A DNA stretch of 64,000 bases, from positions 8,592 to 72,591 of the forward strand of contig CAZXLH010000003.1 in the NCBI GenBank assembly GCA_964641455.1, written 5' to 3'. The notes under the pieces are model-generated. The model was not told the origin of the DNA. It saw only the letters and a program-made list of their open reading frames with translations, and ran no database searches. Position 1 is the first letter of the stretch; every line of letters starts with the position of its first letter. This DNA is from an uncultured Eubacteriales bacterium (lineage in GTDB: Bacteria; Bacillota; Sulfobacillia; Fermentithermobacillales; Fermentithermobacillaceae). Positions 44,089-59,771 of this stretch are shown here, one piece after another. The translations under genes were made by a program, and so were the position numbers.

Positions 44089-45103
44089 CATCTTTGCCGG
44101 CTGCAATCCTGAAAGTGCCAAGGGCAAAGAAACTAAGTTGAACCTGTTTACCTGGGAAGGAATGTTCCCCCAGGACGTGCTCGATGGATTCACCGCTGAA
44201 ACAGGTATCGCAATCAACTACAGCAACTTCGACTACAACGAAACTATGCTTGCTAAACTTGAAGCAGCCAAAGGCGGGGATTATGACCTGGTTATCGCTG
44301 ACGACTACATTCTCCAAACAGTCATCGACCGTGGCCTGGCGCAAAAACTTGATCGCTCAAAGATTCCGAACTTTGAACATATTAACCCTGTATACCAAGG
44401 ACAGTTCTATGATCCTGACGATGAATACACAGCGCCCTACGGTGCCGGCGTCCAGACCATCGTTTATGACCCCAACGAGGTTCAAATCGAGATCACCGGA
44501 TACGCTGATCTTTGGAACGAATCTCTTAAAGATAATCTGGGAACTATCGCAAATTACCGTGTCATTATCGGCATGGCACTTAAAGTCCTAGGCGAGAGTT
44601 ATAATACTGAAGATTTGGACACTATCAAGGCTGCAGGCGAAAAACTGCTTGAAATTGCACCAAATATCCGCATAATCAAAGACGACAATCTTCAGGATGA
44701 TCTTCTGTCAGGGGAAATCGGGGTTGCAGTGATGTACACATCCCAGGTAACAACAGCAGTGCTGGCCAATCCTGATTTGAAGATTGTTTTCCCTGAAGAA
44801 GGAATCGGATTTGGTATCATGGCCAACTTCATTCCGTCCAATGCGCCTAACCCGGATGCAGCCCATAAGTTCATTGATTTCATCTTGCAGCCTGAAATAT
44901 CTGCCCGGTGTTTTGAATACCTGGGATACTACTGCACCAACAAAGCGGCAGAAGACCTAATAAATCCGGATTTCAAAGATATGCTTACACTGCCTTCTGA
45001 CCTGAGCGGCGATATGGAAATGATTCAAACCGTCGGAGCTGAAGCCGAAGAGATGCACGCAAAAATGTGGACCGAATTCAAAGTTGCCTGCGGGCAATCA
45101 TAA
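44042..45103 (+). CDS. potD: Spermidine/putrescine-binding lipoprotein
   Basis: Lipobox FAGC, LNLFTWEG and the PEEG motif. Start taken at the ATG at 44042. Confidence 0.88.
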   Translation: MKRVLRTALVLALFGSIFAGCNPESAKGKETKLNLFTWEGMFPQDVLDGFTAETGIAINYSNFDYNETMLAKLEAAKGGDYDLVIADDYILQTVIDRGLAQKLDRSKIPNFEHINPVYQGQFYDPDDEYTAPYGAGVQTIVYDPNEVQIEITGYADLWNESLKDNLGTIANYRVIIGMALKVLGESYNTEDLDTIKAAGEKLLEIAPNIRIIKDDNLQDDLLSGEIGVAVMYTSQVTTAVLANPDLKIVFPEEGIGFGIMANFIPSNAPNPDAAHKFIDFILQPEISARCFEYLGYYCTNKAAEDLINPDFKDMLTLPSDLSGDMEMIQTVGAEAEEMHAKMWTEFKVACGQS

Positions 45104-45105
45104 TC

Positions 45106-45145
45106 AAGCTCGCGGCCCTGAGCATATGCTCGGGGCCGCGAGCTT
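45106..45145 (+). terminator. 18-bp hairpin after potD
   Basis: AAGCTCGCGGCCCTGAGC-ATAT-GCTCGGGGCCGCGAGCTT starts 3 bp after the stop; there is no clear U-tract. Confidence 0.6.
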
Positions 45146-45202
45146 GCAAAAGCATATCCATGCAGGGATTGCTTAACAAATAGCAAACCGCAACATTAGG
45201 AC

Positions 45203-45231
45203 TTGTGAACTAAAAGAACCCATGCTAAAAT
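45203..45231 (+). promoter_or_regulatory. sigmaA promoter of tRNA-Leu
   Basis: TTGTGA-N17-TAAAAT with an extended TG, 12 bp before the tRNA. Confidence 0.65.
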
Positions 45232-45242
45232 TAGATGTCAGT

Positions 45243-45330
45243 GCCGGGGTGATGGAATTGGCAGTCATGCGCGACTCAAAATCGCGTGGGGTAACCCCCC
45301 GTGCGGGTTCGACTCCCGCCCTCGGCACCA
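45243..45330 (+). tRNA. tRNA-Leu (anticodon CAA)
   Basis: Acceptor stem GCCGGGG/CCTCGGC-A-CCA, anticodon loop CT-CAA-AA, long variable arm, T-arm GGTTCGACTCC. Confidence 0.96.
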
Positions 45331-45501
45331 TTGTTTTGCAGGGAAATATCAATGGCGGCAATCATGCATAGTACGCAACAAAGTGCGGATTGCCGCTATT
45401 TTGCCGTTAACTTTCTTTTATGCTTACTTCTTATGTGACCGGGGTGGTTCACTCTGTTTGTTCTTGGATTCTTTCACGGTTACTTCCGTTGAAACCACGT
45501 A

Positions 45502-45530
45502 AAGAAGCACCCTTTCGGGTGCTTCTTCTT
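45502..45530. terminator. Intrinsic terminator between the convergent tRNA and S15 hydrolase genes
   Basis: AAGAAGCACCC-TTTC-GGGTGCTTCTT (GAAA tetraloop on the minus strand) with T-rich tails. Confidence 0.8.
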
Positions 45531-45618
45531 AATGCTCCACATGTTAATGCTCCACATGCTTCCTTAGGTGTTATGCCAGATACTTCTGCCAGATACTCCC
45601 CTTCCGAAACATTGCCCT

Positions 45619-47775
45619 TCAGATTTTCCCGTAAAGAATAGGCAGTTTAACACACGACGGGTAATCCTCGCCGTGATAAATCTGCTGCGTAGCAATCACC
45701 GGTTTGGGATCAGTGAAAGGATCAATACCGGTATTCGTGTTCGGGAAACAAATCATATAGTCTGCCGAACTAATATCCACCCGGATTTTGTGGCCAGGCT
45801 CAAATACATAACCTGCAAAATGCAAATAAATATGGTATTTTTCAACCTTACCAGGGGTCAGCAGTGACGACGGCTCCTCCGGCCAGTTGCGAAACTCGGC
45901 GCGGATACAGTTCTTGGAAACCTGTCTGGCAACACCTTCTTCATCTACATCAGAAACGCAAACAAAGAAGTCAGTATCTACTGCACTGGAAGAAGCATAA
46001 AACTCGGCAGAAAGGTTACCTGCCACTGCCACAGGTTCAGCAAGCACCGGAGAATCATATACAAGGCAATCCTGCCTGGAATGAAGCTCATTAAGAACTG
46101 TGGGTTCAAATGAACCTTCGCTACTGCCGGTGTTTTCCGGATCGTAAACATAAGAATCGAATCTGTGTCCTTTAGCAGGAGTTGTCACAAGGCAGCCATC
46201 GCCATGCATTGAATTTGCCTTTCCACCGCTATGGAAATACAGTTCAGTAACTATAGTTTCAGTGGGACTCCAATCATCGGAATAATACCACTTATTCTCC
46301 CCTTTGCCACCAACGTAATAAGTCGCGCGAGGTTTCTTATCTTCTCCGTTGGGAATATTTTTCAGGTAGCGATCAAACCACCGAATGGTTCTGGTATCGA
46401 AATCGTAATCTATGGCATTATCACCGTACTCGATGCTCCTGCAATCACGGAATGCATTAAGTTGATGAGGCCACGGCCCAATAATAATCCGGCGGCCGGG
46501 AGTGTCATAAGCCGTAAGGAACCGCCAGGTCTCCTGTACGCCCATTGCATCACCATCGTGCCATCCAGAGATAATCAACATAGGAATCTTGACATTCTTG
46601 CCATGGAGAGTATTGTCGCACTGCTTCCAAAAATCATCGTAGTGGTAATGGCTGCCCCAAATTTCCCATATGCGAGAACGCTTGCCAATAGTCTTAATGG
46701 GTATATCCTTAAGAGGGCGTATCTTGACAGCCTCTTCAGGAACAACTGTAACGCCGCCAAATACATCGTAGTTCACCCGGTTTGATACCGATTGTCCAAG
46801 CCCCCAGCACAGCGCAGGCCAAGAGCAAACTGCACCGCCCCGGCGTACTGTATCCATAAAAAACGGCGAGCCCACATTAACCTCGCTGATTGCAGTTTTC
46901 AAGTTAGGGTGCCCGCTGGTAGCCGCGGCTGTGGTAGTGTAGCCTAGGTAGCTGGCTCCCCACATGCCAATATTGCCATCTGACCATTCCTGAGAAACGA
47001 TCCAATCGAACAAATCGTAGGCATCGTTCCGCTCGTAGTAGAAAGGCACCAGTTCGCCATCTGAATCCGAACGGCCGCGCACATCCTGGATCACAAACGC
47101 ATACCCACGGTTAACCCAATGAGTACATCGGTACATATCCCGTGATTTACCATAGCAAGTACGGACTACAATAGCCGGAAACTTCTGCCCTGGCTTGCCG
47201 CCTTCAGGCAAGAATACTTCTGTAGCAAGTTTGACACCGTCGCGGGTAGGCACCATTTGGTTGCCCAGCGGGCGAATACCGTACTCGGCCTTGGAAAGCA
47301 TAGGGTCCTGATATTTTGTAAGCGGTGTTACAGCTTCATAACCCTCCAAAATCAGCATCTCGCTGGAAATCCGCCCGGGCATGATAAAAGCAATTACCTT
47401 ACCATCTAAAGTAACTACGTCCATCACCGGCGGTTCGCCTCGTTGTGCCCAAAGCTGAGATGTAGTTTGCTTGCCGTCAACAGGCCCGGTAAACGTTAAA
47501 TAGCGGTTATAGCGCTTTCCGTTAGTAAGGGTCACCTTCTCTCCTTCCCACGCGGCATTGGCATAATCTGCAAGGTTCTCATATAGTTCTGCAAAATCGA
47601 ACAGCGACTCTTTCATGTGCTTTTCAAATGGAATATATTTAAGCTGTACCCTTGTCTGAGGGTCAACAGCAGCCCACTGCAACTCTTTTGAATCGAATGC
47701 AACTTTTCCTTCGTATACACCGGAACGGTAGTGAAAAAACGTTTTTCCTATAAGGTTATGATCCATTGAACTCAA
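45619..47775 (-). CDS. CocE/NonD (peptidase S15) hydrolase with an extra N-terminal domain
   Basis: RTCYGK, QDVRGRSDSDG, nucleophile GASYLG, GWHD and GPWPH motifs; no signal peptide. Confidence 0.88.
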   Translation of the reverse strand: MSSMDHNLIGKTFFHYRSGVYEGKVAFDSKELQWAAVDPQTRVQLKYIPFEKHMKESLFDFAELYENLADYANAAWEGEKVTLTNGKRYNRYLTFTGPVDGKQTTSQLWAQRGEPPVMDVVTLDGKVIAFIMPGRISSEMLILEGYEAVTPLTKYQDPMLSKAEYGIRPLGNQMVPTRDGVKLATEVFLPEGGKPGQKFPAIVVRTCYGKSRDMYRCTHWVNRGYAFVIQDVRGRSDSDGELVPFYYERNDAYDLFDWIVSQEWSDGNIGMWGASYLGYTTTAAATSGHPNLKTAISEVNVGSPFFMDTVRRGGAVCSWPALCWGLGQSVSNRVNYDVFGGVTVVPEEAVKIRPLKDIPIKTIGKRSRIWEIWGSHYHYDDFWKQCDNTLHGKNVKIPMLIISGWHDGDAMGVQETWRFLTAYDTPGRRIIIGPWPHQLNAFRDCRSIEYGDNAIDYDFDTRTIRWFDRYLKNIPNGEDKKPRATYYVGGKGENKWYYSDDWSPTETIVTELYFHSGGKANSMHGDGCLVTTPAKGHRFDSYVYDPENTGSSEGSFEPTVLNELHSRQDCLVYDSPVLAEPVAVAGNLSAEFYASSSAVDTDFFVCVSDVDEEGVARQVSKNCIRAEFRNWPEEPSSLLTPGKVEKYHIYLHFAGYVFEPGHKIRVDISSADYMICFPNTNTGIDPFTDPKPVIATQQIYHGEDYPSCVKLPILYGKI

Positions 47776-47782
47776 CTACCTC

Positions 47783-48745
47783 CTATTGCGACAGCTTTTC
47801 ATGGTTCCAACATCGAATGGTATGTCCGTTGCCTAAATCAGTTATAGGCGGGCTGCAATCGTAGCATTTTTGCGTAGCATAGTTGCACCGATCAGCAAAA
47901 CGGCAAGCATCCTCTGGATCTATGGGAGAAGTAATCTCACCTCGTAGCAGTATGCGGCCGGCCTCTTTGTCCAAACTCGGCACCGGAATAGCCGATAGCA
48001 GCGCCTGGGTATAGGGGTGGCGAGGGTTGGCAAACAATTCCCGAACCGGAGCCTTTTCCACCATTTGCCCTAAATACATAACCAGAATATTGTTTGAAAT
48101 GTGCTTAACCACTGACAGGTCATGGGTAATGAACATGTACGTATAGCCAAACTTCTGCTGCAAACGCTTGAGCAAATTGAGAATTTGCGCTTGAATTGAC
48201 ACGTCCAATGCCGACACCGGTTCGTCACAAACAATGAATTCCGGATCCAGCGCTAACGCACGAGCTATTCCAATTCGCTGGCGGCGTCCACCGTCAAGCT
48301 CATGAGGATAAGAGTTGACCAGACGGTCTGCCAGCCCCACAAGTTCCATAAGCTCATATACCCGGTTTTCAAGGCCCGTGTTGTCGGAATACACTTTGTG
48401 AATGATTAGGGGCTCTGCAATCGTATCGTACACCGTCTTGCGTGGGTTCAGCGAAGAAAACGGATCTTGGAAAATGATCTGGACTCGTTTGCGATACTCT
48501 TTCAACTCATTGCCTTCAAGGTTAAGTATGTTTTCCCCATCGAAAAACACTTCTCCGTCTGTAGCATCGGTTAATCTGACCATAACCCTGCCCATAGTGC
48601 TTTTTCCACATCCGGATTCACCAACAACGCCAAGGGTTTCACCTTTGTCAATCGTAAAATTCACACCGTCCACCGCATGGAGCAGGCCGCCAGGGGTTTC
48701 GAAATACTTCGTAAGGTTTCTTACCTCTATGTAGTGTTCAGACAT
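47783..48745 (-). CDS. Oligopeptide ABC transporter ATPase (OppF-like)
   Basis: GESGCGKST, ELDGGRRQRIG and HPYTQALLSAIP motifs. Confidence 0.92.
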   Translation of the reverse strand: MSEHYIEVRNLTKYFETPGGLLHAVDGVNFTIDKGETLGVVGESGCGKSTMGRVMVRLTDATDGEVFFDGENILNLEGNELKEYRKRVQIIFQDPFSSLNPRKTVYDTIAEPLIIHKVYSDNTGLENRVYELMELVGLADRLVNSYPHELDGGRRQRIGIARALALDPEFIVCDEPVSALDVSIQAQILNLLKRLQQKFGYTYMFITHDLSVVKHISNNILVMYLGQMVEKAPVRELFANPRHPYTQALLSAIPVPSLDKEAGRILLRGEITSPIDPEDACRFADRCNYATQKCYDCSPPITDLGNGHTIRCWNHEKLSQ

Positions 48746-49778
48746 TATGATACCCCTTCCCTCTTGGCAATTCGGTGGTTCTTAGCTTGTTTTCATAAAT
48801 CAAACAGCGCACACGATGCTCCTGGCCAGGCAGCGTGGTAATTGCCGGGACAATTTCACCGCATACGGGTTCGGCATATTTGCACCTGGGATGAAAAGGA
48901 CAACCTGTAGGTAAATTAGTAGGCTCAGGCATAAGCCCTTCAATTTGCGCCAAAAACTCTACCTCCTCATCAATGTTCGGAATCGATCCAAACAATCCTA
49001 CTGTGTAAGGATGAGAAGGGTTTAGATAGATATCTTCCAAGGTTCCACTCTCAATAATCTGGCCTGCATACATAATAGCGACCTTGTCACAAATCTCAGA
49101 TACAATACCTAAATCATGGGTAATCATAATCATCGAGGTGCCCAGCCGGTCGCGGAGTTCCTTCATCATGTCCAACACCTGTGCTTGAATAGTCACATCC
49201 AATGCAGTGGTAGGCTCGTCTGCAATCAGCAAACTTGGGTTACATGCCAGGGCAATGGCAATAACCACCCGTTGCTTCATACCACCTGAAAACTGATGTG
49301 GATACTCATATGCACGGTCTGCAGGAATCCGTACCAGTTCCAACATTTCAATTGCCTTATCAGTAGCTTCGCTATATGAAAGAACCTGATGGTTAGCGAT
49401 AACCTCTGCTATCTGGTCCACCACTGTCAGCACAGGATTAAGCGCAGTCATAGGATCCTGAAATATCATCGAAATCTCGCTTCCCCGGTACTTGCGGTAC
49501 TCCTCTTCGGTCAAAGTAAGGAGATCAATGCCATTGTAGACGATCTTGCCTTGCACTATTTTTCCCGGCGGGCTATCTATGAGCCCCATTACAGAGAGAG
49601 CAGTTGTAGTCTTACCGGCCCCTGTCTCTCCGACCAACCCCAAAGTCTCCTTGCGATTTAGCGAAAGGTTCAGATGATTAATTGCCTCTACTATTCCGTC
49701 ACTGGTATGAAACTCAATAACCAGACCTTGAATGTCCAGAAGTTTTTCGTCATTTGATGTCTGCTCATTCACTGGCAA
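48738..49778 (-). CDS. Oligopeptide ABC transporter ATPase (OppD-like)
   Basis: [21 protein letters not shown] and [10 protein letters not shown] motifs. Confidence 0.92.
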
Positions 49779-49787
49779 ATCCCTCCC

Positions 49788-50687
49788 TTAATCTTTCATC
49801 CTCGGATCTAAAGCATCCCGAAGACCGTCGCCCACTAATGTCAAGGCTATAACGGTGATTACAATGGCAATACCGGGAAACGCGGTAATGTGCCATGAAT
49901 CCCGAATAAATTCCCTTCCGCTTGAAAGCATGGCACCCCATTCGGGATCGGGAGGTTGAACACCGAGGCCTATGAAGCTCAGGCCACTGATTGTCATAAT
50001 ACCGCCTGGAATGCTCATCACAAAACTAGAGATAATAGGGCTGATAGCGTTAGGCAGAATATGATGCCATATGATCCGCAAATCGCTTGCACCCTGCACC
50101 CGAACTGCATCAACATACTCAAGATCCTTGATTTTTAGTACCTGAGCCCGCGTAAGCCTAGCCTTACCGGGTATGAAACCAATGGCAATTGCAATAGTAA
50201 GATTCAACACCGTCGGCGGCATAATACTAACTAATGTAATCATCAGCAGCATAGGCGGAATGGCCATTAGAATATCCAGTCCACGCATAATCCAGGTATC
50301 TACTTTACCTCCGTAATAACCGGCTAAGGCTCCAAGAATCATGCCAATGACGCTTCCGAAAAAAACCGAAGTAATCCCGACAAACAGCGAGGTCCTTCCC
50401 CCCCAAATTATACGGGCAAACATATCACGGCCCAGCTCATCTGTGCCCAACAATGTACCTTCAGTAGGAAATTTACTCCGTTCGCCAATGTTAACGCTAA
50501 TTACATCCTCCTCGTAATCAAAAAACAATGGCGCGCTTAGACAAGTCACAACAATTATTGCCAACATAACCATGCCAATAACTGCAGTCGTGTTTTTTCG
50601 TAGGCGCATCCAGGCGTCGGCCCACAGGCTACGCTTTTTAACCTGTCTGGTTGTAGTCTTAGTCAAAGAAGTATTGATCTGCATCAT
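49788..50687 (-). CDS. Oligopeptide ABC permease (OppC-like)
   Basis: LGTDELGRD and PPDPEWGAML motifs. Confidence 0.92.
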   Translation of the reverse strand: MMQINTSLTKTTTRQVKKRSLWADAWMRLRKNTTAVIGMVMLAIIVVTCLSAPLFFDYEEDVISVNIGERSKFPTEGTLLGTDELGRDMFARIIWGGRTSLFVGITSVFFGSVIGMILGALAGYYGGKVDTWIMRGLDILMAIPPMLLMITLVSIMPPTVLNLTIAIAIGFIPGKARLTRAQVLKIKDLEYVDAVRVQGASDLRIIWHHILPNAISPIISSFVMSIPGGIMTISGLSFIGLGVQPPDPEWGAMLSSGREFIRDSWHITAFPGIAIVITVIALTLVGDGLRDALDPRMKD

Positions 50688-50688
50688 C

Positions 50689-51651
50689 CTACGCCTGAAC
50701 CTCCTTCTGTTTTCTTGCCTTTGGCTTCACATACATGGATTTGATCCTGGGATCAACGGCTGCATAGGCAAGGTCTGTAAGAAGGTTGGCCAGAGCAATA
50801 ATAACCGCAGCAATAATAACGCTTGCCATGATAGTAGGAATATCTTTCTGGCGAAGAGCGTCTACCATCATTTTACCTAAGCCATTGATGCCAAAAACCG
50901 TTTCAATAATTACCGACCCGCCTACACACCGGCCAATTGCCATGCCAATGGAAGTAACTATAGGCAGCAAGGCATTCTTTAACGCGTGCTTATGCAGAAT
51001 CCGGCCATAGGCGATTCCTTTGGCGCGAGCGGTGCGAATATAGTCCTGCCGTATCACATCCAGCATGGAAGCGCGCACCAGCCGGGAATTTGTGGTCCAT
51101 CCAGCAACAGAAAGGCAGATGAGCGGCATGATACAAGCCTTAGCGCTCTCGAGCCCGTTTGACGGCAGCCAACGCAGTTTTACCGAAAACAAAAGGATCA
51201 ACATTAGTCCCAGCCAAAAGCCAGGCATAGCAGCCAAAAGCAGAGTGACAACCCGCATCACGTTATCGAAAACAGAGTTTTGTTTTACCGCCAACAAGAT
51301 ACCCAAAGGAATTGCTATTATAAAGATCAAGAATATGGACCCAAACGAAAGCAACAGGGTATTTGGCAGGCGAATCTTTATCATTTCCGACACTGGCTGC
51401 TTGGTAGTGTAAGAAGTACCAAAGTCACCTTTAAGCACGTTACCCATGTATCGTAAGTACTGAACGATCATAGGGTCGTTGAGCCCCAGCTGTTCCCGCA
51501 TCATTTCCAGCTCCTCCGGCTTGGCACCTACACCAAGAATCATCTGTGCAGGATCGCCTGGGCTTAAGGAGAGCAGGACGAATACCAAAAGAGTGACCCC
51601 AATAAGAATAGGAATTATTTGCAGCAACCGATTTACAATGTACTTGCTCAT
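50689..51651 (-). CDS. Oligopeptide ABC permease (OppB-like)
   Basis: PGDPA, GDFGTSY and DYIRTARAKG motifs. Confidence 0.92.
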   Translation of the reverse strand: MSKYIVNRLLQIIPILIGVTLLVFVLLSLSPGDPAQMILGVGAKPEELEMMREQLGLNDPMIVQYLRYMGNVLKGDFGTSYTTKQPVSEMIKIRLPNTLLLSFGSIFLIFIIAIPLGILLAVKQNSVFDNVMRVVTLLLAAMPGFWLGLMLILLFSVKLRWLPSNGLESAKACIMPLICLSVAGWTTNSRLVRASMLDVIRQDYIRTARAKGIAYGRILHKHALKNALLPIVTSIGMAIGRCVGGSVIIETVFGINGLGKMMVDALRQKDIPTIMASVIIAAVIIALANLLTDLAYAAVDPRIKSMYVKPKARKQKEVQA

Positions 51652-51679
51652 GGTCTCTCCCCTATTTCGTTCTTCGTCG

Positions 51680-51719
51680 GTGAATGGGCTGTCACAAGTA
51701 CTTGTAACAGCCCGTCCAC
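51680..51719. other. Intercistronic stem-loop between the binding-protein and permease genes
   Basis: GTGAATGGGCTGTCACAAG / TTGTAACAGCCCGTCCAC inverted repeat; such hairpins commonly stabilise binding-protein mRNA. Confidence 0.55.
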
Positions 51720-51746
51720 TACAAACAAAGAAATATCTCTACAGCA

Positions 51747-53261
51747 TTACTCAAAATAAGCATTGCGGAAGGAATAGATTGAACTTGAGTAAATTCGTAC
51801 TCCCTGCAAGGCTTTATCACAAGCAAAGATTGCCTGCCTGCTAAAGGTGGGTATGATAGGCATTTCTGAAGCTGCGATATCCTGACACTCCCGTGCAGCC
51901 TCTATCAAAGCCTCCTCGTCAGCAGCAGCCTTGGCAATGTTGAACAACTCATCACAACGTGGGTTCTCGAAGAAAGAGATGTTTCTCGAACCGAAACTGC
52001 CTGTCCAATAGTTTTCAAGCGCAACCAAAGGATCACCGGTAGTATTGTTCCAAGAGCCACACAACATCTGATACTCACCGTTAGCCATACCTTCCAGGAA
52101 CACGCCAAATTCCAGGTTGGTAATTGACATATCGACACCAATGCTCTTAAGCACAGCTTGGTATGCTTCCATAATGGAGGTATGCCCGCCATAAACCCAA
52201 GCCTCAAACGTCAGAGGATTAGATTCATTGTAACCTTCAGCTTCCAAAAGTTGCTTTGCCTTTTCCAGGTTGTACTCGGGTACATTGGGCGACGAATAGT
52301 AAGTATTGAACATTGGAGGAGTCATACTGTCAATAACGCTGGCGCCGCCTTGAATAGTGGCGAGGCTTTCCTTGTCGCAGGCATAAGCCATTGCCAATCG
52401 AATATTCTTGTTATCGAAAGGTGCTTTTTTGTTATTCATAGATATGAACGAAGTGTTAGTAGTTGTCTTGGTTATCACATTTAGATTATCGTTTTGCTCG
52501 GCTCGTTCCATATCCTGATAGTCTATAGCAGCAAACTGCGCCTCTCCGGTTTCAACAGAGATATAACGGTTGGCAGCTTCTTCAATAACCTTGAAAGTGA
52601 TATTCTTAATCTTCGGTTTTTCAAACGGATAATCTTCCCATGCTGTAAGTTCAAGTTTGTCACCGGGAATGAAGTTCTTGACCACATAAGGGCCGGTACC
52701 AACCGGTTCGTTGGCATAAGCCTCTCCGGCACTTTCACAGTAAGACTTGTTGTAAACGTGAGCATTAGCCATCAGGTTCCTAATTGTACCGCTGTTTGGC
52801 TCTTTAAGTTTGATAGTGACTTCCTTATCACCGGTAACCTCAACTGAATCCACATTGCTCATGTATGAAGCACATTTGGGGATATCGTGCAAACGCTCTA
52901 TAGAAAATACAATGTCTTCCATCTCCAGGGGTTCACCATTATGGAACATGAAACCGTCTCCAACAGTGAACTTGAAGGTTAGATCATCAACCTGTTCCCA
53001 GGAATCGGCAACCGCAGCCTCATAGTTAAAGTCTTCGTCTACAGCAATAATGTAATCATAGATATGACTCGTGGCAATAGAAACGTTAGTAAAGTTGGCA
53101 ACTGCAGCATCCAGGGTGTTACCAATAGCGGAAATAGCTACAAATATACTATTGCGGCCGGAAGTATCCGGGCCCTCTCCTTGAGACGTTGAAGGAGTGC
53201 AACCCACCAGACTTGCTACCATGCAGACAGTCAAAACAAGCACAACAACTCTTCTTTTCAT
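51747..53261 (-). CDS. Oligopeptide-binding lipoprotein (SBP family 5)
   Basis: Lipobox LVGC after MKRR at 53261; GTGPY motif. Confidence 0.9.
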   Translation of the reverse strand: MKRRVVVLVLTVCMVASLVGCTPSTSQGEGPDTSGRNSIFVAISAIGNTLDAAVANFTNVSIATSHIYDYIIAVDEDFNYEAAVADSWEQVDDLTFKFTVGDGFMFHNGEPLEMEDIVFSIERLHDIPKCASYMSNVDSVEVTGDKEVTIKLKEPNSGTIRNLMANAHVYNKSYCESAGEAYANEPVGTGPYVVKNFIPGDKLELTAWEDYPFEKPKIKNITFKVIEEAANRYISVETGEAQFAAIDYQDMERAEQNDNLNVITKTTTNTSFISMNNKKAPFDNKNIRLAMAYACDKESLATIQGGASVIDSMTPPMFNTYYSSPNVPEYNLEKAKQLLEAEGYNESNPLTFEAWVYGGHTSIMEAYQAVLKSIGVDMSITNLEFGVFLEGMANGEYQMLCGSWNNTTGDPLVALENYWTGSFGSRNISFFENPRCDELFNIAKAAADEEALIEAARECQDIAASEMPIIPTFSRQAIFACDKALQGVRIYSSSIYSFRNAYFE

Positions 53262-53420
53262 TTTGCTATGTGTACTGCCATTCTTCAATGCGGCAGTACC
53301 CCTCCTTTCTTGATTTGAACCGGTATCAAAGCCAACACCTGTCAACGAGACAAACGGAAATTTTCCCCCACCCTGTTACCACACAATCATGAGCGTCAAC
53401 AGGGCAGGGCAACAAACCAA

Positions 53421-54575
53421 TTACTTGCAAACCTCGCTCAACACACGCATCCAATTACCACCGATAATTTTGATAATATCGTCATCCCTGTAACCACGTG
53501 ATACCAGGCCTGCGGTAAGATTACCAAGGTCGCGGTAATCCTTGATTCCGTGGATGTACTCAATTGAGGGGCCATCCCCTGGCTTAAAGCCAATAGTCGG
53601 CGCCACATGTTCCTTAAAAGCCAGTGCCATCCATTTGGTTTGGGGCATTGGCCAGTCAGTTCCGATGCCGACATGATTAACGCCAATCAAATTCACCACA
53701 TAGTCAATGTGATCAAGCACATGCTCAATTGTGCTATTATTGGGATCCTCTGCAATAAACCACGGCATTGCGAATATCCCCACTACTCCGCCGGTACCGG
53801 CAATCGCTTTGAGTTCCTCATCGGACTTACAACGGTTGTGTAAATAAACCTTTTCACCGCCTGTATGAGATGCAATTACCGGGGCTTTAGAATGCTTGCA
53901 AGCATCCATGGTAGTCTGATAGCCGCAGTGGCCGGTATCCACAATAATCCCTAGCTCATTACACTTGGCTACGAACTTAATTCCGAACCTGGAAAGCCCG
54001 GCATCATTCGGCTCCATGCAACCTGCACCTACCAAATTGTGATTGTTATAGGTAAGTTGCTGAACCCGCAGGCCAAAATCGTATGCCATTTCCAAGAGTC
54101 CAAGATCCGTTCCGTAACCCAAAGTCTCCTGGCTTGTAACAATACCTGCCTTAAGGCCGTTTCTGTGAGCATACTCCACTTCTTCGGCATTGCGCGCCTT
54201 AATGAGCCATGGTTTGAAGTCAAACTCGCACTGTATATGTACCATGCTCTTAAACAAAGAATTCTTGTCAATAATACTCAACTGACGGCAACCGGCGGTG
54301 ATCCCACTTTCATACCAACACTGCTTGTACAAATCACTGAGCCTGCCCTTGGTAAACCATTGCCTGATTAACCTCTGTGCATAGGCCACCTGCGCCACCA
54401 CATCATAGGGATGTGCTTCTCGGGCAAGGGCTTGTAGTTCTTCCTCCAGTTCCTCTGGAAGTGCATAGGTACCGATTGGTCCCTGGAACAACATGTCTAT
54501 CACTATGTTTTCTTCATGCAATTTCTTTGCGTGCTGCTGTTGCTGTTCCGTGAGCCCAAAATCATATGGAACCAT
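53421..54575 (-). CDS. Membrane dipeptidase family (M19) protein
   Basis: QLTYNNHN, VDTGH, IASH, RCKSDE and HVGIGTD motifs. Confidence 0.85.
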   Translation of the reverse strand: MVPYDFGLTEQQQQHAKKLHEENIVIDMLFQGPIGTYALPEELEEELQALAREAHPYDVVAQVAYAQRLIRQWFTKGRLSDLYKQCWYESGITAGCRQLSIIDKNSLFKSMVHIQCEFDFKPWLIKARNAEEVEYAHRNGLKAGIVTSQETLGYGTDLGLLEMAYDFGLRVQQLTYNNHNLVGAGCMEPNDAGLSRFGIKFVAKCNELGIIVDTGHCGYQTTMDACKHSKAPVIASHTGGEKVYLHNRCKSDEELKAIAGTGGVVGIFAMPWFIAEDPNNSTIEHVLDHIDYVVNLIGVNHVGIGTDWPMPQTKWMALAFKEHVAPTIGFKPGDGPSIEYIHGIKDYRDLGNLTAGLVSRGYRDDDIIKIIGGNWMRVLSEVCK

Positions 54576-54592
54576 GGAAATACCTCCTTTGC

Positions 54593-55537
54593 CTATTCCA
54601 GGGTTTCGGCTACAAAGTTAGCTGCAATCAGATCTTCAAGTGCCTGTCCCAACGCCTCGAAAATTGTGATATCGCTATCACTTATCCTGCCAGGTAGCAT
54701 ACCGGACAAAACCTGCCCAGCCTCACCAAGAATGTGCTCCTCGGTAATGGAACCATCCTGCACAGCGAGCAAGTAGTCACCTGCCTCCACCACAACAGCA
54801 GGCTTCCAATCCACAAACAACCGGCCGGCTTTAACCAAATCAGAAGAAAGTTCTCGAGCATCCGGCGAGCAGGCCCCTACCGCATTGATATGAGTTCCAG
54901 GTTTTACATCTTTGCCAGAAAGGATAGACTCCTGAGAAGGAGTCAGAGTACATATGATATCCGCATCCTTTGTGGCTTCACTTACACTGGAGCAAACGCG
55001 TATGGGCAAGCCGGTTTTTTGGCCCATTTCTTCTGCATAAAGCAAAGCAGCCTCTGAAGAAATATCCCATACAGTGACATCATTGAGGTTTCGCACCAGA
55101 CTAATGGCTTCCAGATGCCGCCTGCCCTGAAGCCCGGCACCTAAAATAGCCAATCTGGAAGCATCCTGGCGAGATAACGCCTTAGTGGCTGCAGCTGAAA
55201 CTGCAGCAGTGCGGATCCCAGTGACAGACTCTGCGTCCACAATTGCCTTAATGCTGCCTGTTTCGGCATCGAACACAAGTATCTGCCCTTGATGAGATGG
55301 AAGCCCTTTCTTGTAGTTTTCCGGAAACACTGCAAGGATCTTTATTCCGGCTACCTTTTCAGAAGCTATATAGGCAGGCATCATACCCAACACATTCCTA
55401 TCATACAACGGAAAAACCGGCCTGATAATCTGTTTTCCATCTCCATTGGAAAGTGCTATCAGTGCATCCTTCATTAGTCCGATACAACGCTCCATATCCA
55501 GAGCTTGTTCCACCTGTGCCTTATTGATTATTTTCAT
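54593..55537 (-). CDS. Ornithine cyclodeaminase/mu-crystallin family protein
   Basis: MPA..., TGIRTAAVS, GAGLQG, HINAVG and G.ALED motifs. Confidence 0.9.
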   Translation of the reverse strand: MKIINKAQVEQALDMERCIGLMKDALIALSNGDGKQIIRPVFPLYDRNVLGMMPAYIASEKVAGIKILAVFPENYKKGLPSHQGQILVFDAETGSIKAIVDAESVTGIRTAAVSAAATKALSRQDASRLAILGAGLQGRRHLEAISLVRNLNDVTVWDISSEAALLYAEEMGQKTGLPIRVCSSVSEATKDADIICTLTPSQESILSGKDVKPGTHINAVGACSPDARELSSDLVKAGRLFVDWKPAVVVEAGDYLLAVQDGSITEEHILGEAGQVLSGMLPGRISDSDITIFEALGQALEDLIAANFVAETLE

Positions 55538-55573
55538 AGACCGTCTTCCTTTTTTGATTATGTAGTGGCTATT

Positions 55574-56953
55574 TCATTTCACCGGTTTGAGTTTGGCGGT
55601 GAAGTGACGAAGCACTTTCGGCTGCCAGACGATCTCATACCCCTTTACCTGATCAGCCCGTTTCTGAATGTTACTCAGCGCCTTAGCCACTAAGTCAAGA
55701 TGCGCCTGGGTGTATACTCTACGCGGCAGGCAAAGGCGAGTAAATTCCATTTCACTTTCCAGTTGCTCACCGGTTACCGGATCGGGATCCAACATGAAAG
55801 AACCGATATCGCAACCACGGATGCCGGCCTCCAGATAAAGTTCGGCTGCCAATGCATGTCCGGGGAACTGATAATACGGAATATGAGGCAAGAGCTTCTT
55901 GGCATCAATAAACACAGCGTGTCCGCCTACAGGATACTGAAACGGTACTCCGGCTTCCCGAAGCAGATCGCCTAAATATTCCACTTGCCCAATTCGATAG
56001 CGCAAGAAATCAACATCTATGCCTTCATAGAGGCCAATAGCCAAAGCTTCCAGGTCGCGTCCGGCCAGGCCTCCGTAGGTAACAAAACCTTCATATGGAA
56101 CCGTATAGCTTTGCACCTCGCGGAAAAGTTCTTCATCATCTTTTACGCCGATAAGCCCACCCATGTTAACAATGCCGTCTTTCTTTGCCGACATTGTAAA
56201 AGCAGTGGCATAGCTAAACGCCTCACGCGTAATGTCATCAATAGACTTATCTTCGTAACCAGGTTCCCGCGTCATAATAAAATAAGCATTTTCTGCAAAC
56301 CGTGCAGCATCAATCACCATAGGAATCCCATGCTTGTCGGCAACCTTGGCAGTCTCTTTGATATTTTCCATTGATACAGGCTGCCCGCCTGCAGTATTGT
56401 TAGTTATGGTCATAATAATAGCGCCGACCTTATCAGCGCCCACTTTGCTGATAAATGCCTCTAAGGCCTCAACATCCATGTTGCCCTTAAACGGAGCATA
56501 ATTGCTTGTATCACGGGCTTCTGCCACTACAATATCCTTGGGAATCGCCTTGCACAGCCCCACATGGCCTCGCGTGGTATCAAAGTGCATATTCGAAACA
56601 GAATACTGGCCCTCGCTGAGAAGGCAGGGCAACAACACCTTCTCTGCCGCACGCCCCTGATGTACAGGCTGAGCAAAACGATAGCCGAAAATGTCTTTGA
56701 CCGCATCCATAAGCCTGTAATAGCCTCGAGCGCCTGCATAGCTCTCATCGCCTTGTAGAATACCGGCCCACTGAGTGTCACTCATGGCGCCGGTACCACT
56801 GTCGGTAAGCATGTCTATGTACACGTAATCGCTTTTTAAGGAAAACAAATTGTAATGAGCTTCCTCTAGATACTTTTCACGTTCCTCCCGAGTGGTAAGA
56901 GTCAGTGGCTCTACCATTTTAATCTTAAACGGTTCCGCAACATATTCTGCCAT
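55574..56953 (-). CDS. tnaA: Tryptophanase-like PLP beta-eliminating lyase
   Basis: DMLTDSG, HQGRAAE, FDTTR, SAKKD (PLP Lys) and LRHFTA. D in FDTTR, I in DIGS and H in RHF indicate tryptophanase rather than tyrosine phenol-lyase. Confidence 0.78.
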
Positions 56954-57134
56954 ATTCTCTTCCTCCTGCTATATGCGCAATATTCCTATATTGTGAACAA
57001 CATATCAAATAGGCTTGTGTCTGTATATTGACTTTAAGTTGTCTTTAATATAAGGTAGCGCAGATAGGCACGTGACTTAAAATAAACTGAAAACACTTCA
57101 GGCAACCGGAATATCTAAGCAAAGGAGCAACACC

Positions 57135-58460
57135 ATGAAATTTAAACTAGGAGTAGTCGGACATAGGGACACCCTGGAAATGGTCTCTAAAATAATTGAC
57201 GAATACTTCGATGATATAGAAATGTACCCTGAAGAATTTGGAAACGACGATATCATTACTGATGCAGTTGAGCGAATTGCACGGCTACAGACCGTTTGCG
57301 ACGGAATCCTTTATTCCCGCCGAGATCCTTACCTGCTGGTCTCGGGACGGCTACATCATACCGTACCGGTGCGCTACGTTGAAATAGACAGTTCCCACCT
57401 GCTTATCAGCCTGTTGGAAGCTAACATTCGCTATGGGATTAGGCCTATTAACATCAGCATTGATGCTATTGACCGTGCCACAGCAGTTAAAGCTTTTCAG
57501 AGTGTAGGCATTCCCGAAGAGCGGCTAACCATCAATGTGGTCAGCACCAATTTAGGGCAAAGCGAGCTAGTCAACACTACCCTGGCCCAACATCTCAAAC
57601 ATTATCAAAAAGGCGCCCAACTGTGCATCACCAACATAACAGACGTTTACCGTTCCCTGCTGGAATTAAATGTGCCTGTAACGGTCATCAATCCAACAAC
57701 TGAATCCTTTGTTCATGAGATCCGCAACCTAATGCTCCGCTATCGTCTCAAAAGCCAGCATTCCAGCCCATTGGCTATTTTACATATCTATCTACGGTAT
57801 AAGGAAAAATATCGGTTTTACGGCGATATACCCATCAGAGAAATAGACGAGTTAAGCAATGCCGCTAAACTCATGGCCGTTTTTGCGGAAAAACTGGAAG
57901 GCGCCATGTTCACTATAAGCAGATGGGAATATCTGATTTTCTGCAGTCAGTTCGTGCTGCACAACACTACAAATCAATTTATGGAAATCGGCTTAATGGA
58001 AAGTATTAACCGGGATACGGTTTTTGACGTTGCAATGGGCATTGGCTGCGGACAAACGGTCAAGGAAGCGCAGTCCAATGCAATAATCGCCGCTAACCAT
58101 TCTGTTGCCCAGCGAGGCACTAACATGGTAATCGCACTTTCTCCTGAACGCCTTGTCGGCCCTATTAGCCCCAGAAGCAGGCATTTTTCCGACGATAGCC
58201 TTACCGAAACCCAGCTTGAAGAAATCGCAGGAGCAACCGGGCTGAGCATCAGTACCCTTAACCAACTTTATCAGGCAACCCTTGCCCGAAATTCAAATTT
58301 GTTTACTTCGGCCGAACTGGCTGAAATTCTTGATGTGACTACCCGAACAGTTAACCGCTATGTGGAACGGCTTATCGATAACCGGTACGCTGAAATTGCC
58401 GGAAAAAACCTGACAAAACCCAAAGGGCGGCCTGCACGGGTGATCCGCCTGTTATTCTAG
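57135..58460 (+). CDS. Putative transcriptional regulator (sensor, GGDEF-like middle, C-terminal HTH)
   Basis: GIGCGQT..EA..NA..A middle motif and C-terminal ELAEILDVTTRTVNRYV...GRP; divergent from the lyase operon. Confidence 0.75.
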   Translation: MKFKLGVVGHRDTLEMVSKIIDEYFDDIEMYPEEFGNDDIITDAVERIARLQTVCDGILYSRRDPYLLVSGRLHHTVPVRYVEIDSSHLLISLLEANIRYGIRPINISIDAIDRATAVKAFQSVGIPEERLTINVVSTNLGQSELVNTTLAQHLKHYQKGAQLCITNITDVYRSLLELNVPVTVINPTTESFVHEIRNLMLRYRLKSQHSSPLAILHIYLRYKEKYRFYGDIPIREIDELSNAAKLMAVFAEKLEGAMFTISRWEYLIFCSQFVLHNTTNQFMEIGLMESINRDTVFDVAMGIGCGQTVKEAQSNAIIAANHSVAQRGTNMVIALSPERLVGPISPRSRHFSDDSLTETQLEEIAGATGLSISTLNQLYQATLARNSNLFTSAELAEILDVTTRTVNRYVERLIDNRYAEIAGKNLTKPKGRPARVIRLLF

Positions 58461-58748
58461 TCAACCGGCTAACACACAGGTAACGCGAAACGGTATCGAC
58501 CCAAACTCGATATGGTGGATATAGCCTGGCTATGTAGGCGAAGCAGCATTTTTCGGCAGCAAACTTACTTTCGCAAAACGCCATATAGCCAAGTCAGGCA
58601 ACATCTCAAAACAACATGCTATTTCCGTCACTGCAAAACCTACGTATCCATCTTTGAACCCGCTACTATAGAAGATGTTATTGCCACAGTCGCAAAACCT
58701 ACGCATTCGTCTCTAAATCCATAGCTCATCCGCCTACCCAACTGCTGC

Positions 58749-59771
58749 CTACAAGTTGCATGTGATATCTTGTGCAAAAAGAGAGGCAAGCCCGCCTGTA
58801 TGAATATAGCAGGCACCTTCGTCAGAAGGTATAATGCCCTTTTTAATCAAATCAAGGAAACCGCCAAAAGACTTGCTTGTATATACATCTTCCAGCAAAA
58901 TCGCTTCTGTCTGAGCCAATGTAAAAAGCGCCTGCCTGGACTGCTCGGTGGGAACAGCATAACCTTCGCCTAAGTACTCATCGTAAATAGTCGTTACCTT
59001 ATCAGGCGAAACCTGTGGCTGGAGCCCTTGCACTGACTTAGTTATGCCAGCGGCTCCTTCAATAAGGCCGCTCATGAGTTTTTCAAGAACCGGTTTTGGA
59101 TACTCTACACTGATTACATGCACATGGAAAGGGTGTCCGAGGAGGGCAGCCCCCAACACAAAACCGCTGGCAGTGCCTCCCATGGCCCCAACTATCCCGA
59201 CATGCTTGATGTTTAAATCCTTAGCTTTGATTTGGGCATATAACTCGAAAGCCGCGTTCACATACCCAAGAGCCCCTAAAGAAGTAGATGCTCCGTTATG
59301 AATAATATAGGGGTTTCGCCCTTCCCGCCGCATTTTATCTGCCAGTTTCTCCATTTCACAGGTTCTGGTATGCTCATCTGTTTTACCCACAAAAACAGAC
59401 TCAGCTCCAAAAACACAATTCAAGAGCATATTCCCCTCAAGTTTTTGTGGCCGGTCATCATTATGAACCAGCAGACAATCGAGCCCAAGTTTACAGCAAG
59501 CCCCTGCCGTAAGTGAACACAAATTGGACTGCAACCCACCTGCGGTCAAAATAATATCTGCGCCGCTTTTCACAGCATCCCCTAAAAGAAACTCCAGGCT
59601 GCGTGTCTTGTTGCCACCTTGCCCTAATCCGGAAAGATCATCTCTTTTGATATAAAACTGCTTATGCTTTAGCTGTTCTCCCAGCCTATCTAACTTTTGT
59701 AAAGGCGTGGGCCATATTCCAAGGTTAACCCTTGGAAGCCGGTCAAGGCACCACCGGTGATTCATCCCCAT
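58749..59771 (-). CDS. D-cysteine desulfhydrase/ACC deaminase family PLP enzyme
   Basis: IKRDD, GGNK (PLP Lys), VYT.K and HTGG; the Thr residues point to the D-Cys desulfhydrase side of the family. Confidence 0.85.
   Translation of the reverse strand: MGMNHRWCLDRLPRVNLGIWPTPLQKLDRLGEQLKHKQFYIKRDDLSGLGQGGNKTRSLEFLLGDAVKSGADIILTAGGLQSNLCSLTAGACCKLGLDCLLVHNDDRPQKLEGNMLLNCVFGAESVFVGKTDEHTRTCEMEKLADKMRREGRNPYIIHNGASTSLGALGYVNAAFELYAQIKAKDLNIKHVGIVGAMGGTASGFVLGAALLGHPFHVHVISVEYPKPVLEKLMSGLIEGAAGITKSVQGLQPQVSPDKVTTIYDEYLGEGYAVPTEQSRQALFTLAQTEAILLEDVYTSKSFGGFLDLIKKGIIPSDEGACYIHTGGLASLFAQDITCNL

Follow-up and report, generated by a model that had tools for sequence, protein, structure and literature searches.

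A tryptophanase gene probably captured by a horizontally spread peptide-uptake cassette in a small clade of thermophilic anaerobic-digester Bacillota

Operons of the dppABCDE-ykfABCD type in Bacillus subtilis join a peptide importer of the ATP-binding cassette (ABC) type to dedicated peptidases, while the beta-hydroxyaspartate cycle uses BhcB, a beta-eliminating dehydratase dependent on pyridoxal 5'-phosphate (PLP), together with BhcD, an iminosuccinate reductase of the OCD family. Tryptophanase is co-expressed with an uptake system in the tnaCAB operon of Escherichia coli, and residue roles have been described for the tryptophan indole-lyase (TIL) of Proteus vulgaris (PDB 1ax4; PMC11301627). 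Here we describe a locus of an uncultured bacterium of the Fermentithermobacillaceae in which a tryptophanase-type lyase gene heads a run that also encodes a peptide-type importer and three further enzymes. It lies in a 64,000-nt stretch of DNA (assembly GCA_964641455.1, contig CAZXLH010000003.1), hereafter the window, which belongs to a 2.54-Mb metagenome-assembled genome (MAG) with a completeness of 96.9%; the closest named relative at the locus is a Candidatus Fermentithermobacillaceae MAG. We read the locus, with moderate confidence, as a composite operon made of an older cassette for a peptide-like compound and a tnaA gene that was captured in one clade of digester Bacillota.

Compared with tnaCAB and P. 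vulgaris TIL, the locus shares the enzyme family along with the catalytic and indole-binding residues, and its lyase is likewise co-expressed with an uptake system, as far as can be inferred from gene spacing. It differs in having neither a TnaC leader (no Rfam leader was found) nor a TnaB permease; the partners of the lyase are instead an Opp-type peptide importer, two hydrolases and a reductase, and control would be exerted by a regulator of about 440 aa with a helix-turn-helix (HTH) domain. The B. subtilis dpp-ykf operon likewise combines a family-5 binding lipoprotein and an OppBCDF-type importer with cytoplasmic peptide-finishing enzymes, but the enzyme set is wholly different here (an M19 variant, a CocE/NonD hydrolase with an additional N-terminal domain, and an OCD homolog), as are the regulator and operator, and the cassette contains no epimerase or NlpC/P60 enzyme. 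The arrangement, a tnaA gene captured by a peptide cassette, is new, while its parts are of known kinds. No paper on the cassette was found in the literature on combinations of its enzymes or via the PDB codes 8SIJ and 2I5G, and it appears to be uncharacterised despite its spread, which includes the human gut.

All ten genes named in a preliminary description of the window, which was made from the sequence alone, were confirmed at their coordinates and with their family calls by open reading frame listing and by Pfam and NCBIfam scans: nine minus-strand genes form a single run (56953 to 45619) and are faced by a plus-strand regulator gene. The features are as follows:

57135..58460, plus strand: divergent regulator, 441 aa, with a C-terminal winged HTH (HTH_11/HTH_24 at residues 375-416)
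57019..57043, minus strand: operator-like element GACAACTTAAAGTCAATATACAGAC, found by aligning regulator-operon gaps
55574..56953, minus strand: tryptophan indole-lyase of the tnaA type (Beta_elim_lyase), 459 aa, first gene of the run, assigned from Pfam, NCBIfam and PDB matches
54593..55537, minus strand: NAD(P)-dependent enzyme of the OCD/mu-crystallin family, 314 aa (PF02423, 246.8 bits)
53421..54575, minus strand: M19-fold amidohydrolase, 384 aa, with a remodelled metal site and no signal peptide (PF01244 and AlphaFold2 model)
51747..53261 (listed to 53345), minus strand: family-5 solute-binding lipoprotein (SBP_bac_5, 254 bits), DppA-sized, 504 aa from Met29
50689..51651, minus strand: OppB/DppB-type permease (BPD_transp_1 and BPD_transp_1_N)
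49788..50687, minus strand: OppC/DppC-type permease (OppC_N and BPD_transp_1), 1 nt after the preceding gene
48738..49778, minus strand: OppD-type ATPase (ABC_tran and oligo_HPY)
47783..48745, minus strand: OppF-type ATPase (ABC_tran and oligo_HPY), overlapping oppD by 8 nt
45619..47775, minus strand: CocE/NonD (S15) serine hydrolase with Peptidase_S15 and PepX_C domains (TIGR00976, 315.1 bits, cut-off 66.3)
45501..45528, minus strand: terminator-like hairpin at the end of the run (12-bp stem, free energy -30.8 kcal/mol, z -5.63, none of 200 shuffles as stable)

The distribution of the cassette was surveyed with the M19 protein as seed, and its orthologs, 55-83% identical, were found in many lineages. 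In these the order is divergent regulator, OCD homolog, M19 homolog, binding protein, oppBC(DF) and CocE homolog. Copies without a lyase occur in Trueperaceae (locus L120), Brevibacillus centrosporus (L121), Lachnospiraceae (L122, which also has no OCD gene), Treponema (L123) and at L175, on the JGI contigs L126-128 and L131, and on about 25 human-gut contigs. The OCD-M19-CocE trio stands alone at L118, L119, L181 and L186 (Paenibacillus-like genomes and others), and no tnaA-like gene was detectable in two Paenibacillus-like genomes with this trio. Altogether, the upstream side of the cassette is covered at 44 loci, and the lyase is missing at 39 of them; many of the 39 come from one gut species, and they represent at least 10 distinct lineages. 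The gut species in question (L132-L172) carries the lyase-less cassette, with an M19 protein 64% identical to that of the window, in dozens of independent human-gut assemblies.

A lyase gene between the regulator and the OCD gene was seen solely in the window and at L005, L085, L086, L125 and L176, where the entire gene order of the window is repeated with lyases 77-86% identical and with different flanks, which argues that the arrangement did not come about by chance. The proposal in the preliminary description that the genes form a conserved and probably co-transcribed unit with its own divergent regulator was thus borne out at these loci, while its further claim that the lyase is an integral step of a single pathway from peptide to beta-elimination had to be given up, both for the 39 loci mentioned above and for a genome of the window's own family (G292) that has an 81%-identical lyase and no cassette. 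A close lyase (56-84% identity) was present in 80 species genomes, only one of which (L005) had the cassette neighbours, at L083 and L084 an 84%-identical lyase stands alone, and an M19 ortholog was present in 3 of 400 sampled Bacillota genomes. In a maximum-likelihood tree (quick search) the cassette-linked lyases form one clade of 9 rows, with a support of 99 in the Shimodaira-Hasegawa-like approximate likelihood ratio test, nested among lone tnaA genes of Clostridia; the tnaA genes of the sister clade are monocistronic and face a distant homolog (24-27% identical) of the same regulator architecture. We count the order of events among the firm results: judged from these comparisons, the lyase appears as a late addition to an older cassette that had spread horizontally. 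The neighbourhood survey that the preliminary description had called for therefore gave a divided answer, with the cassette conserved and the lyase joined to it in one small clade only.

The position of the operator-like element points in the same direction. Its 14-nt core, GTCAATATACAGAC, lies at 57019-57032; the lyase starts 66 nt downstream of it and the regulator gene starts 102 nt away, and the element occurs just once in the window (0 of 100 shuffles). All cassette lineages tested have the core, with two mismatches at most, in the gap between regulator and operon, apart from L131, where the best match has four mismatches; the lineages with a match include the lyase-less L120, L121, L122, L126/L128, L175 and the gut species, among them lineages whose regulators are only 28-34% identical to that of the window. 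The chance expectation at this stringency is, by our own arithmetic, about 0.002 per 300-nt gap. Where there is no lyase, the element lies upstream of OCD or oppA, and in the window it lies upstream of the lyase and not between lyase and OCD; therefore, the lyase was inserted inside an existing control unit. A weak sigma-70-like site (57008-56979, minus strand) is found just downstream of it. The regulators encoded divergently from the cassette are 52-68% identical at lyase-bearing loci, 58% at the lyase-less L120 and 28-34% at the others. The N-terminal and middle parts of the regulator belong to no curated family, the protein gave no NCBIfam or PDB sequence match, and the Atlas clusters of look-alikes are unnamed 'transcriptional regulators', some of them with minority GCH_III or HTH matches. 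As a side observation, regulators of about 440 aa, with a weak GGDEF-like middle domain and a C-terminal winged HTH, also face lone tnaA genes in several Clostridia (L008:8316-9635, L009:8508-9830, L007 and L014), and they make a candidate for an undescribed family of tryptophanase regulators related to the cassette regulator.

A lyase placed beside the cassette by mere chance, with a promoter of its own and no functional or regulatory link, would agree with the lone lyases of close relatives (L083/L084 and G292), with the cassettes that stand without a lyase in most hosts, and with the monocistronic tnaA genes of the sister clade and their own regulator. We nevertheless regard it as extremely improbable, given that at least six loci with lyases 13-23% apart and with different flanks have retained the arrangement, that only 36 nt and no terminator separate the lyase from OCD, and that the conserved operator precedes the lyase and is not found between the two genes.

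In the composite operon that we favour, a horizontally spread cassette under its own divergent regulator and the conserved operator GTCAATATACAGAC would provide a DppA-sized lipoprotein and an OppBCDF-type importer for the uptake of a peptide-like ligand of di- or tripeptide size, which the CocE/NonD hydrolase and the M19-fold hydrolase would cut in the cytoplasm, and the OCD homolog would interconvert one of the products between a 2-imino or 2-oxo acid and an L-amino acid. The tnaA gene would have arrived by a single insertion, downstream of the operator and upstream of the first cassette gene, in a small clade of thermophilic Bacillota from anaerobic digesters, so that the only tryptophanase of the cell (L-Trp to indole, pyruvate and ammonia) would be switched on together with the uptake system. 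The simplest reading in this lineage is that Trp freed from the imported peptide feeds the co-induced tryptophanase, as would suit a peptide fermenter. Among microbial signals indole is a major one, and uraemic toxins are derived from it. In this lineage, control of the only tryptophanase appears to lie with a peptide-uptake regulator and not with free tryptophan, and the indole output would then track one particular imported substrate. Since the cassette itself is spread over several phyla and is present in many metagenomes of the human gut, with three atypical enzyme variants and a sharply conserved operator, it offers a well-defined target for substrate discovery, with the regulator and operator as a handle.

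Spacing along the run (gaps of 36, 17, 159, 95, 1, 9, -8 and 7-16 nt) indicates that the nine genes are probably co-transcribed; the gap of 159 nt, which follows the M19 gene, shrinks to 75 nt if the binding protein starts at an upstream TTG. We consider Met29 (53261) the most likely start of the binding protein, as it gives a lipoprotein signal ending in LVGC, and ATG 47766 the probable start of the CocE homolog, giving 715 aa like its orthologs. The terminator-like hairpin follows about 90 nt past the stop of the latter. Rfam searches of 45000-58800 (E up to 1) returned no leader or riboswitch, and the matches were a tRNA-Leu and one sub-threshold small RNA only.

The lyase reaches 725.7 bits against the tryptophanase subfamily model PRK13238 (cut-off 285). 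Its top PDB match is 8sij, 'Tryptophanase 1', with 649.7 bits, against 539.5 for P. vulgaris TIL (1ax4); enterobacterial TnaA proteins, with about 475-540 bits, are more distant from it than 8sij. In P. vulgaris TIL the PLP lysine is K266, with D223, N194 and S263 around the cofactor (PMC11301627). The lyase residues F37, T50, S52, Y72, R101, F124, D125, N186, D215, K258, R406, H450 and F451 are those of TIL, where F132/D133, N194, D223, K266, R414 and H458/F459 correspond to F124/D125, N186, D215, K258, R406 and H450/F451, and the PLP lysine K258 together with D215 and N186 is invariant in 85-86 of 86 alignment rows. The indole-specific set, Asp133-His458 with Phe132, Phe459 and Tyr72, is completely kept (D125, H450, F124, F451 and Y72). 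Asp133 and His458 of TIL are required for the cleavage of Trp and not for that of S-ethyl-cysteine (PMC11301627), and since both are kept in all cassette-linked lyases, it can be argued that Trp cleavage is under selection.

The single row that deviates at the three specificity columns of the 86-row alignment (Thr/Arg/Phe) is a paralog from the same genome (contig C5:69157-70521, L002:1501-2865), 49% identical to the lyase, which is a tyrosine phenol-lyase according to TIGR02618 (806.8 bits, cut-off 720.7). The Asp and His columns are validated by this internal control, which has Thr and Phe there; the lyase itself falls below the tyrosine phenol-lyase equivalog cut-off (545 vs. 720.7). We predict an ordinary-looking, Trp-specific, indole-producing tryptophanase, and the organism can probably form phenol as well as indole. 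An altered specificity deduced from the CDIGS loop was considered and dismissed, as 8sij also reads CDIGS there and the Ile at the column of the tyrosine phenol-lyase Arg is kept. No permease of the TnaB/Mtr type (PF03222) was found in the 96.9%-complete genome, in agreement with the idea that a peptide transporter takes the place of TnaB. The same cannot be said of the modified aromatic or thioether residue that the preliminary description had proposed as substrate: nothing specific points to it, and the lyase keeps all the Trp-specificity residues of TIL. Genes that are not co-transcribed or conserved together, combined with an ordinary Trp-specific lyase, were to have spoken against the original idea; the genes turned out to be conserved together, and the lyase looks ordinary and Trp-specific by sequence.

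The best PDB matches of the OCD homolog are 6t3e, a reductase of delta-1-pyrroline-2-carboxylate (Pyr2C), with 217 bits, and then ketimine reductase/CRYM with 187 bits. Cyclisation by the Pseudomonas putida OCD involves the triad E56-D228-K232, in place of which the reductase has L52-V224-A228 (PMC4141209). Transferred via the 6t3e alignment, these positions are G51-C223-A227 in the OCD homolog. The residues R39, K66, R109, G51 and C223 do not vary among 41 cassette orthologs, and the first three presumably represent the carboxylate-binding Arg-Lys-Arg set of the OCD structure. A role as ornithine or lysine cyclodeaminase was rejected for the absence of the cyclisation triad; because G51 and C223 are moreover invariant, the protein is predicted to be of the imine-reductase/amino-acid-dehydrogenase type and not a cyclodeaminase, in line with the earlier expectation of such a type. 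It lies under every NCBIfam equivalog cut-off, including that of the bifunctional reductase of Pyr2C and delta-1-piperideine-2-carboxylate (PRK06141, 247.8 bits vs. 322). The closest matches, TlLhpI of Thermococcus litoralis (6t3e; PMC4141209) and mammalian CRYM, likewise have no cyclodeaminase triad, and the Gly60 position of CRYM is also Gly here, while Val224 of TlLhpI is replaced by the invariant Cys and no hydroxyproline dehydratase or proline racemase is encoded near the OCD homolog.

A reductase of this type directly behind a lyase raises the alternative that it traps unstable imines as a 2-imino-acid reductase. In the ancestral cassette the imine or enamine would stem from a 'dehydropeptidase'-like cleavage by the M19 homolog, and in this lineage the iminopyruvate of the tryptophanase would be turned into L-alanine with NAD(P)H, mirroring BhcB and BhcD. 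TIL does release iminopyruvate (PMC11301627), and TlLhpI, the closest relative of the reductase-type OCD homolog, has Pyr2C-reductase, alanine dehydrogenase and N-methyl-alanine dehydrogenase activities, of which the alanine dehydrogenase activity is poor. The lyase directly precedes OCD with a 36-nt gap in the window and a 10-nt overlap at L086, OCD and M19 overlap by 4-17 nt at L085, L120 and L123, and the lyase is still beside OCD-M19 at the rearranged locus L117. BhcD, an iminosuccinate reductase of the OCD family (NF045643; PDB 6rqa), provides a precedent for an imine hand-off, as there too the gene of a PLP-dependent beta-eliminating enzyme stands next to that of an OCD-family imine reductase; however, the OCD homolog scores only 170.7 bits against BhcD (cut-off 500), the eliminating enzyme is of a different family than BhcB, and the pairing is secondary here and limited to one clade. 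Furthermore, iminopyruvate hydrolyses spontaneously and does not need a reductase, the cassette at L122 manages without OCD, and no source of dehydro-amino acids is evident, so that we find an imine hand-off unlikely, albeit not negligible. In its fullest form it would amount to an undescribed pathway for di- or tripeptides with dehydro-, N-alkyl- or D-residues, in which the M19 homolog frees an imino acid, the OCD homolog reduces it to the L-amino acid, and the tryptophanase was recruited later to the same reductase; we attach a similarly low probability to it. If true, Trp would be fermented to indole and alanine, providing a sink for NADH without free aminoacrylate or ammonia, and a second natural example of the BhcB/BhcD logic would be at hand. 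A complex prediction for the M19 and OCD homologs scored 0.00, which is no evidence either way.

The M19 homolog matches PF01244 with 239.4 bits (cut-off 26) over profile positions 90-319 only. Its AlphaFold2 model (predicted local distance difference test, pLDDT, 94) has the M19 TIM-barrel fold, and Foldseek placed the uncharacterised 2i5g first, followed by GliJ and Sco3058, with template modelling (TM) scores of 0.69-0.74 to M19 structures. It shares this barrel with the M19 proteins DPEP1 of human (1itq), Sco3058 of Streptomyces (3id7), GliJ of Aspergillus (5lwz) and 2i5g of P. aeruginosa (Foldseek E 1e-22 to 4e-27), and it keeps conserved equivalents of their His198, His219 and Asp288: H216, H237 and D307 are invariant and stand opposite DxSH, SH and G(S/T)D in 2i5g and GliJ, i.e., the two beta-site His residues and the catalytic Asp of strands 5, 6 and 8 are retained. 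The rest of the metal site is altered. D27-x-L29-F-Q31, with L29 and Q31 invariant, replaces D-x-H-x-D (V-I-D-M-L-F-Q, vs. V-I-D-T-H-C-D in canonical Bacillota M19 proteins), which turns HxD into xLxQ, and an invariant Gln (Q149) occupies the column of the bridging Glu (the GliJ Glu), as in 2i5g. Judged by these residues, the protein is without the HxD motif and bridging Glu of the canonical binuclear zinc site, meaning that the alpha-metal ligands are predicted to be lost. It further differs from M19 dipeptidases in an invariant C186-x-E188 loop and in a helical insert of about 50 residues after strand 1. Independently of the cassette, several other M19 subfamilies of Bacillota (L091-L113) were seen without HxD (IDGAFTN, IDATCPL, IDGLAGT) or with HEH/HDH instead; a remodelled metal site is thus widespread among bacterial M19 proteins.

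Two further alternatives involve this enzyme. According to the first, the cassette salvages peptides of odd stereochemistry or linkage, such as L-Xaa-D-Xaa or cell-wall stem peptides, and the lyase is a co-regulated passenger. Bacterial M19 enzymes reportedly prefer L-Xaa-D-Xaa, as Cummings et al. are said to have found in 2010, and the structurally closest characterised bacterial M19 enzymes were crystallised with L-Leu-D-Ala or L-Ala-D-type phosphinate mimics (3s2j, 3ly0). The cassette also occurs in Trueperaceae and Treponema, and at the rearranged L117 (G122:C39:1-10170; transglutaminase-like protein, OCD, M19, lyase, GNAT, a protein of unknown function, and a 529-aa Amidohydro_3 protein, with no Opp genes or CocE ortholog nearby) the GNAT gene and the Amidohydro_3 gene, whose family includes D-aminoacylases, lie beside the lyase. 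We deem this salvage unlikely nonetheless, because the M19 metal site is not canonical here, no racemase, epimerase or D-amino-acid dehydrogenase was found in or next to any copy examined, and no stereo-inverting role is known for the OCD homolog by itself. The second alternative, a sharpened form of the reading in the preliminary description, is a mercapturate-like route for conjugates of Cys-Gly or of other S-substituted cysteines, with the M19 homolog as Cys-Gly-type dipeptidase and the lyase as C-S beta-lyase. The M19 model has the Cys-Gly dipeptidase GliJ as one of its best structural matches (TM 0.74), TIL cleaves S-ethyl-L-cysteine (PMC11301627), and the binding protein has E. coli YliB/GsiB as second-best PDB match. 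Against this, Asp133 and His458 are retained in all cassette-linked lyases, and these residues are needed for Trp, whereas S-ethyl-Cys cleavage can do without them or is even hampered by them; the lyase is absent from most cassettes, the M19 metal site is unlike that of GliJ and DPEP1, and a GsiB match of 127 bits is generic for the binding-protein family, all of which makes such a route very improbable.

Returning to the composite operon, its importer is complete, with a family-5 binding protein, two BPD_transp_1 permeases and two oligo_HPY ATPases. The binding protein, the orthologs of which have 500-516 aa, is most similar in the PDB to 5u4o (ligand unknown, 204 bits) and then to YliB/GsiB (127 bits), and as the importer reaches no equivalog cut-off, its ligand class is not assignable from models. 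Uptake and stepwise cleavage of a small peptide-like compound are suggested by the type of transporter, by a lipoprotein of DppA-like size and by the presence of two hydrolases inside the cell. None of the OCD, M19 and CocE homologs has a signal peptide, so the three enzymes would act on imported material.

The CocE homolog shares the S15 alpha/beta-hydrolase and PepX_C jelly-roll with cocaine esterase CocE (1ju3) and the alpha-amino-acid ester hydrolases (2b4k). Its GASYLG, GWHDG and GPWPH align with GVSYLG, GWYDG and GPWSH of cocaine esterase, motifs which we take to hold the catalytic Ser117, Asp259 and His287, and the aligned Tyr is presumably the oxyanion Tyr44. In contrast to CocE, the protein is always encoded inside a peptide-import cassette and carries an extra N-terminal beta domain of about 155 residues (window 47242-47775, minus strand), which is conserved in 16 orthologs (e.g., L085:18997-19521, L120:13907-14407 and L118:9791-10291). 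The model of this domain (pLDDT 83) had no PDB match by Foldseek at E <= 0.001, and a wide VIA search gave Z 5.4-5.9 to half-barrels like those of LolA, LprG and VioE, which is under the tool's meaningful level; the domain may form a pocket for a hydrophobic ligand or be a new one.

Several points weigh against the composite reading or its details. The lyase lies under both TnaA equivalog cut-offs (630.9 vs. 750 and 610.5 vs. 825.8), and its predicted specificity for Trp is drawn from residue conservation. Likewise, it is the transporter type and the hydrolase families that suggest a 'peptide-like' substrate, and gene spacing that suggests co-transcription of the lyase with the cassette. The transporter genes could have a promoter of their own in the 159 nt that separate them from the M19 gene (53262-53420, minus strand), where a CCCTGTT/AACAGGG hairpin and a TTGACA word were found; as an internal promoter or as a processing site, these elements may uncouple the expression of the enzymes from that of the transporter. 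Finally, the lyase is promoter-proximal in at least six loci and has stayed beside OCD-M19 in the rearranged L117, a position that hints at a functional tie tighter than plain co-regulation.

With regard to the surroundings, genes flanking other cassette copies were considered as clues to the substrate and not used, as none recurs: a TRAP transporter, an NCS2 permease, IorAB-like genes, a GNAT gene, a D-2-hydroxyacid dehydrogenase and a PocR kinase were seen. The IorAB-like case is a single observation in Lachnospiraceae (L122:1-2103), where the regulator gene directly adjoins genes whose domains are arranged as in an IorA/IorB-like 2-oxoacid:ferredoxin oxidoreductase. In the window, a genomic island was rejected, given that the region is not set apart by base composition. 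Beyond the terminator hairpin lie a tRNA-Leu(CAA) gene, directly past it at 45243-45330 (plus strand), and then the potABCD genes, which converge on the hairpin; the tRNA-Leu gene is a conceivable integration site in view of the patchiness of the cassette within the family. At the other end, a D-cysteine-desulfhydrase-family gene (58749-59771, minus strand) follows hutH and converges on the regulator gene; it lies outside the cassette in other hosts, and its best model is the D-cysteate sulfo-lyase CuyA (286.6 bits, cut-off 450), with all matches under their cut-offs.

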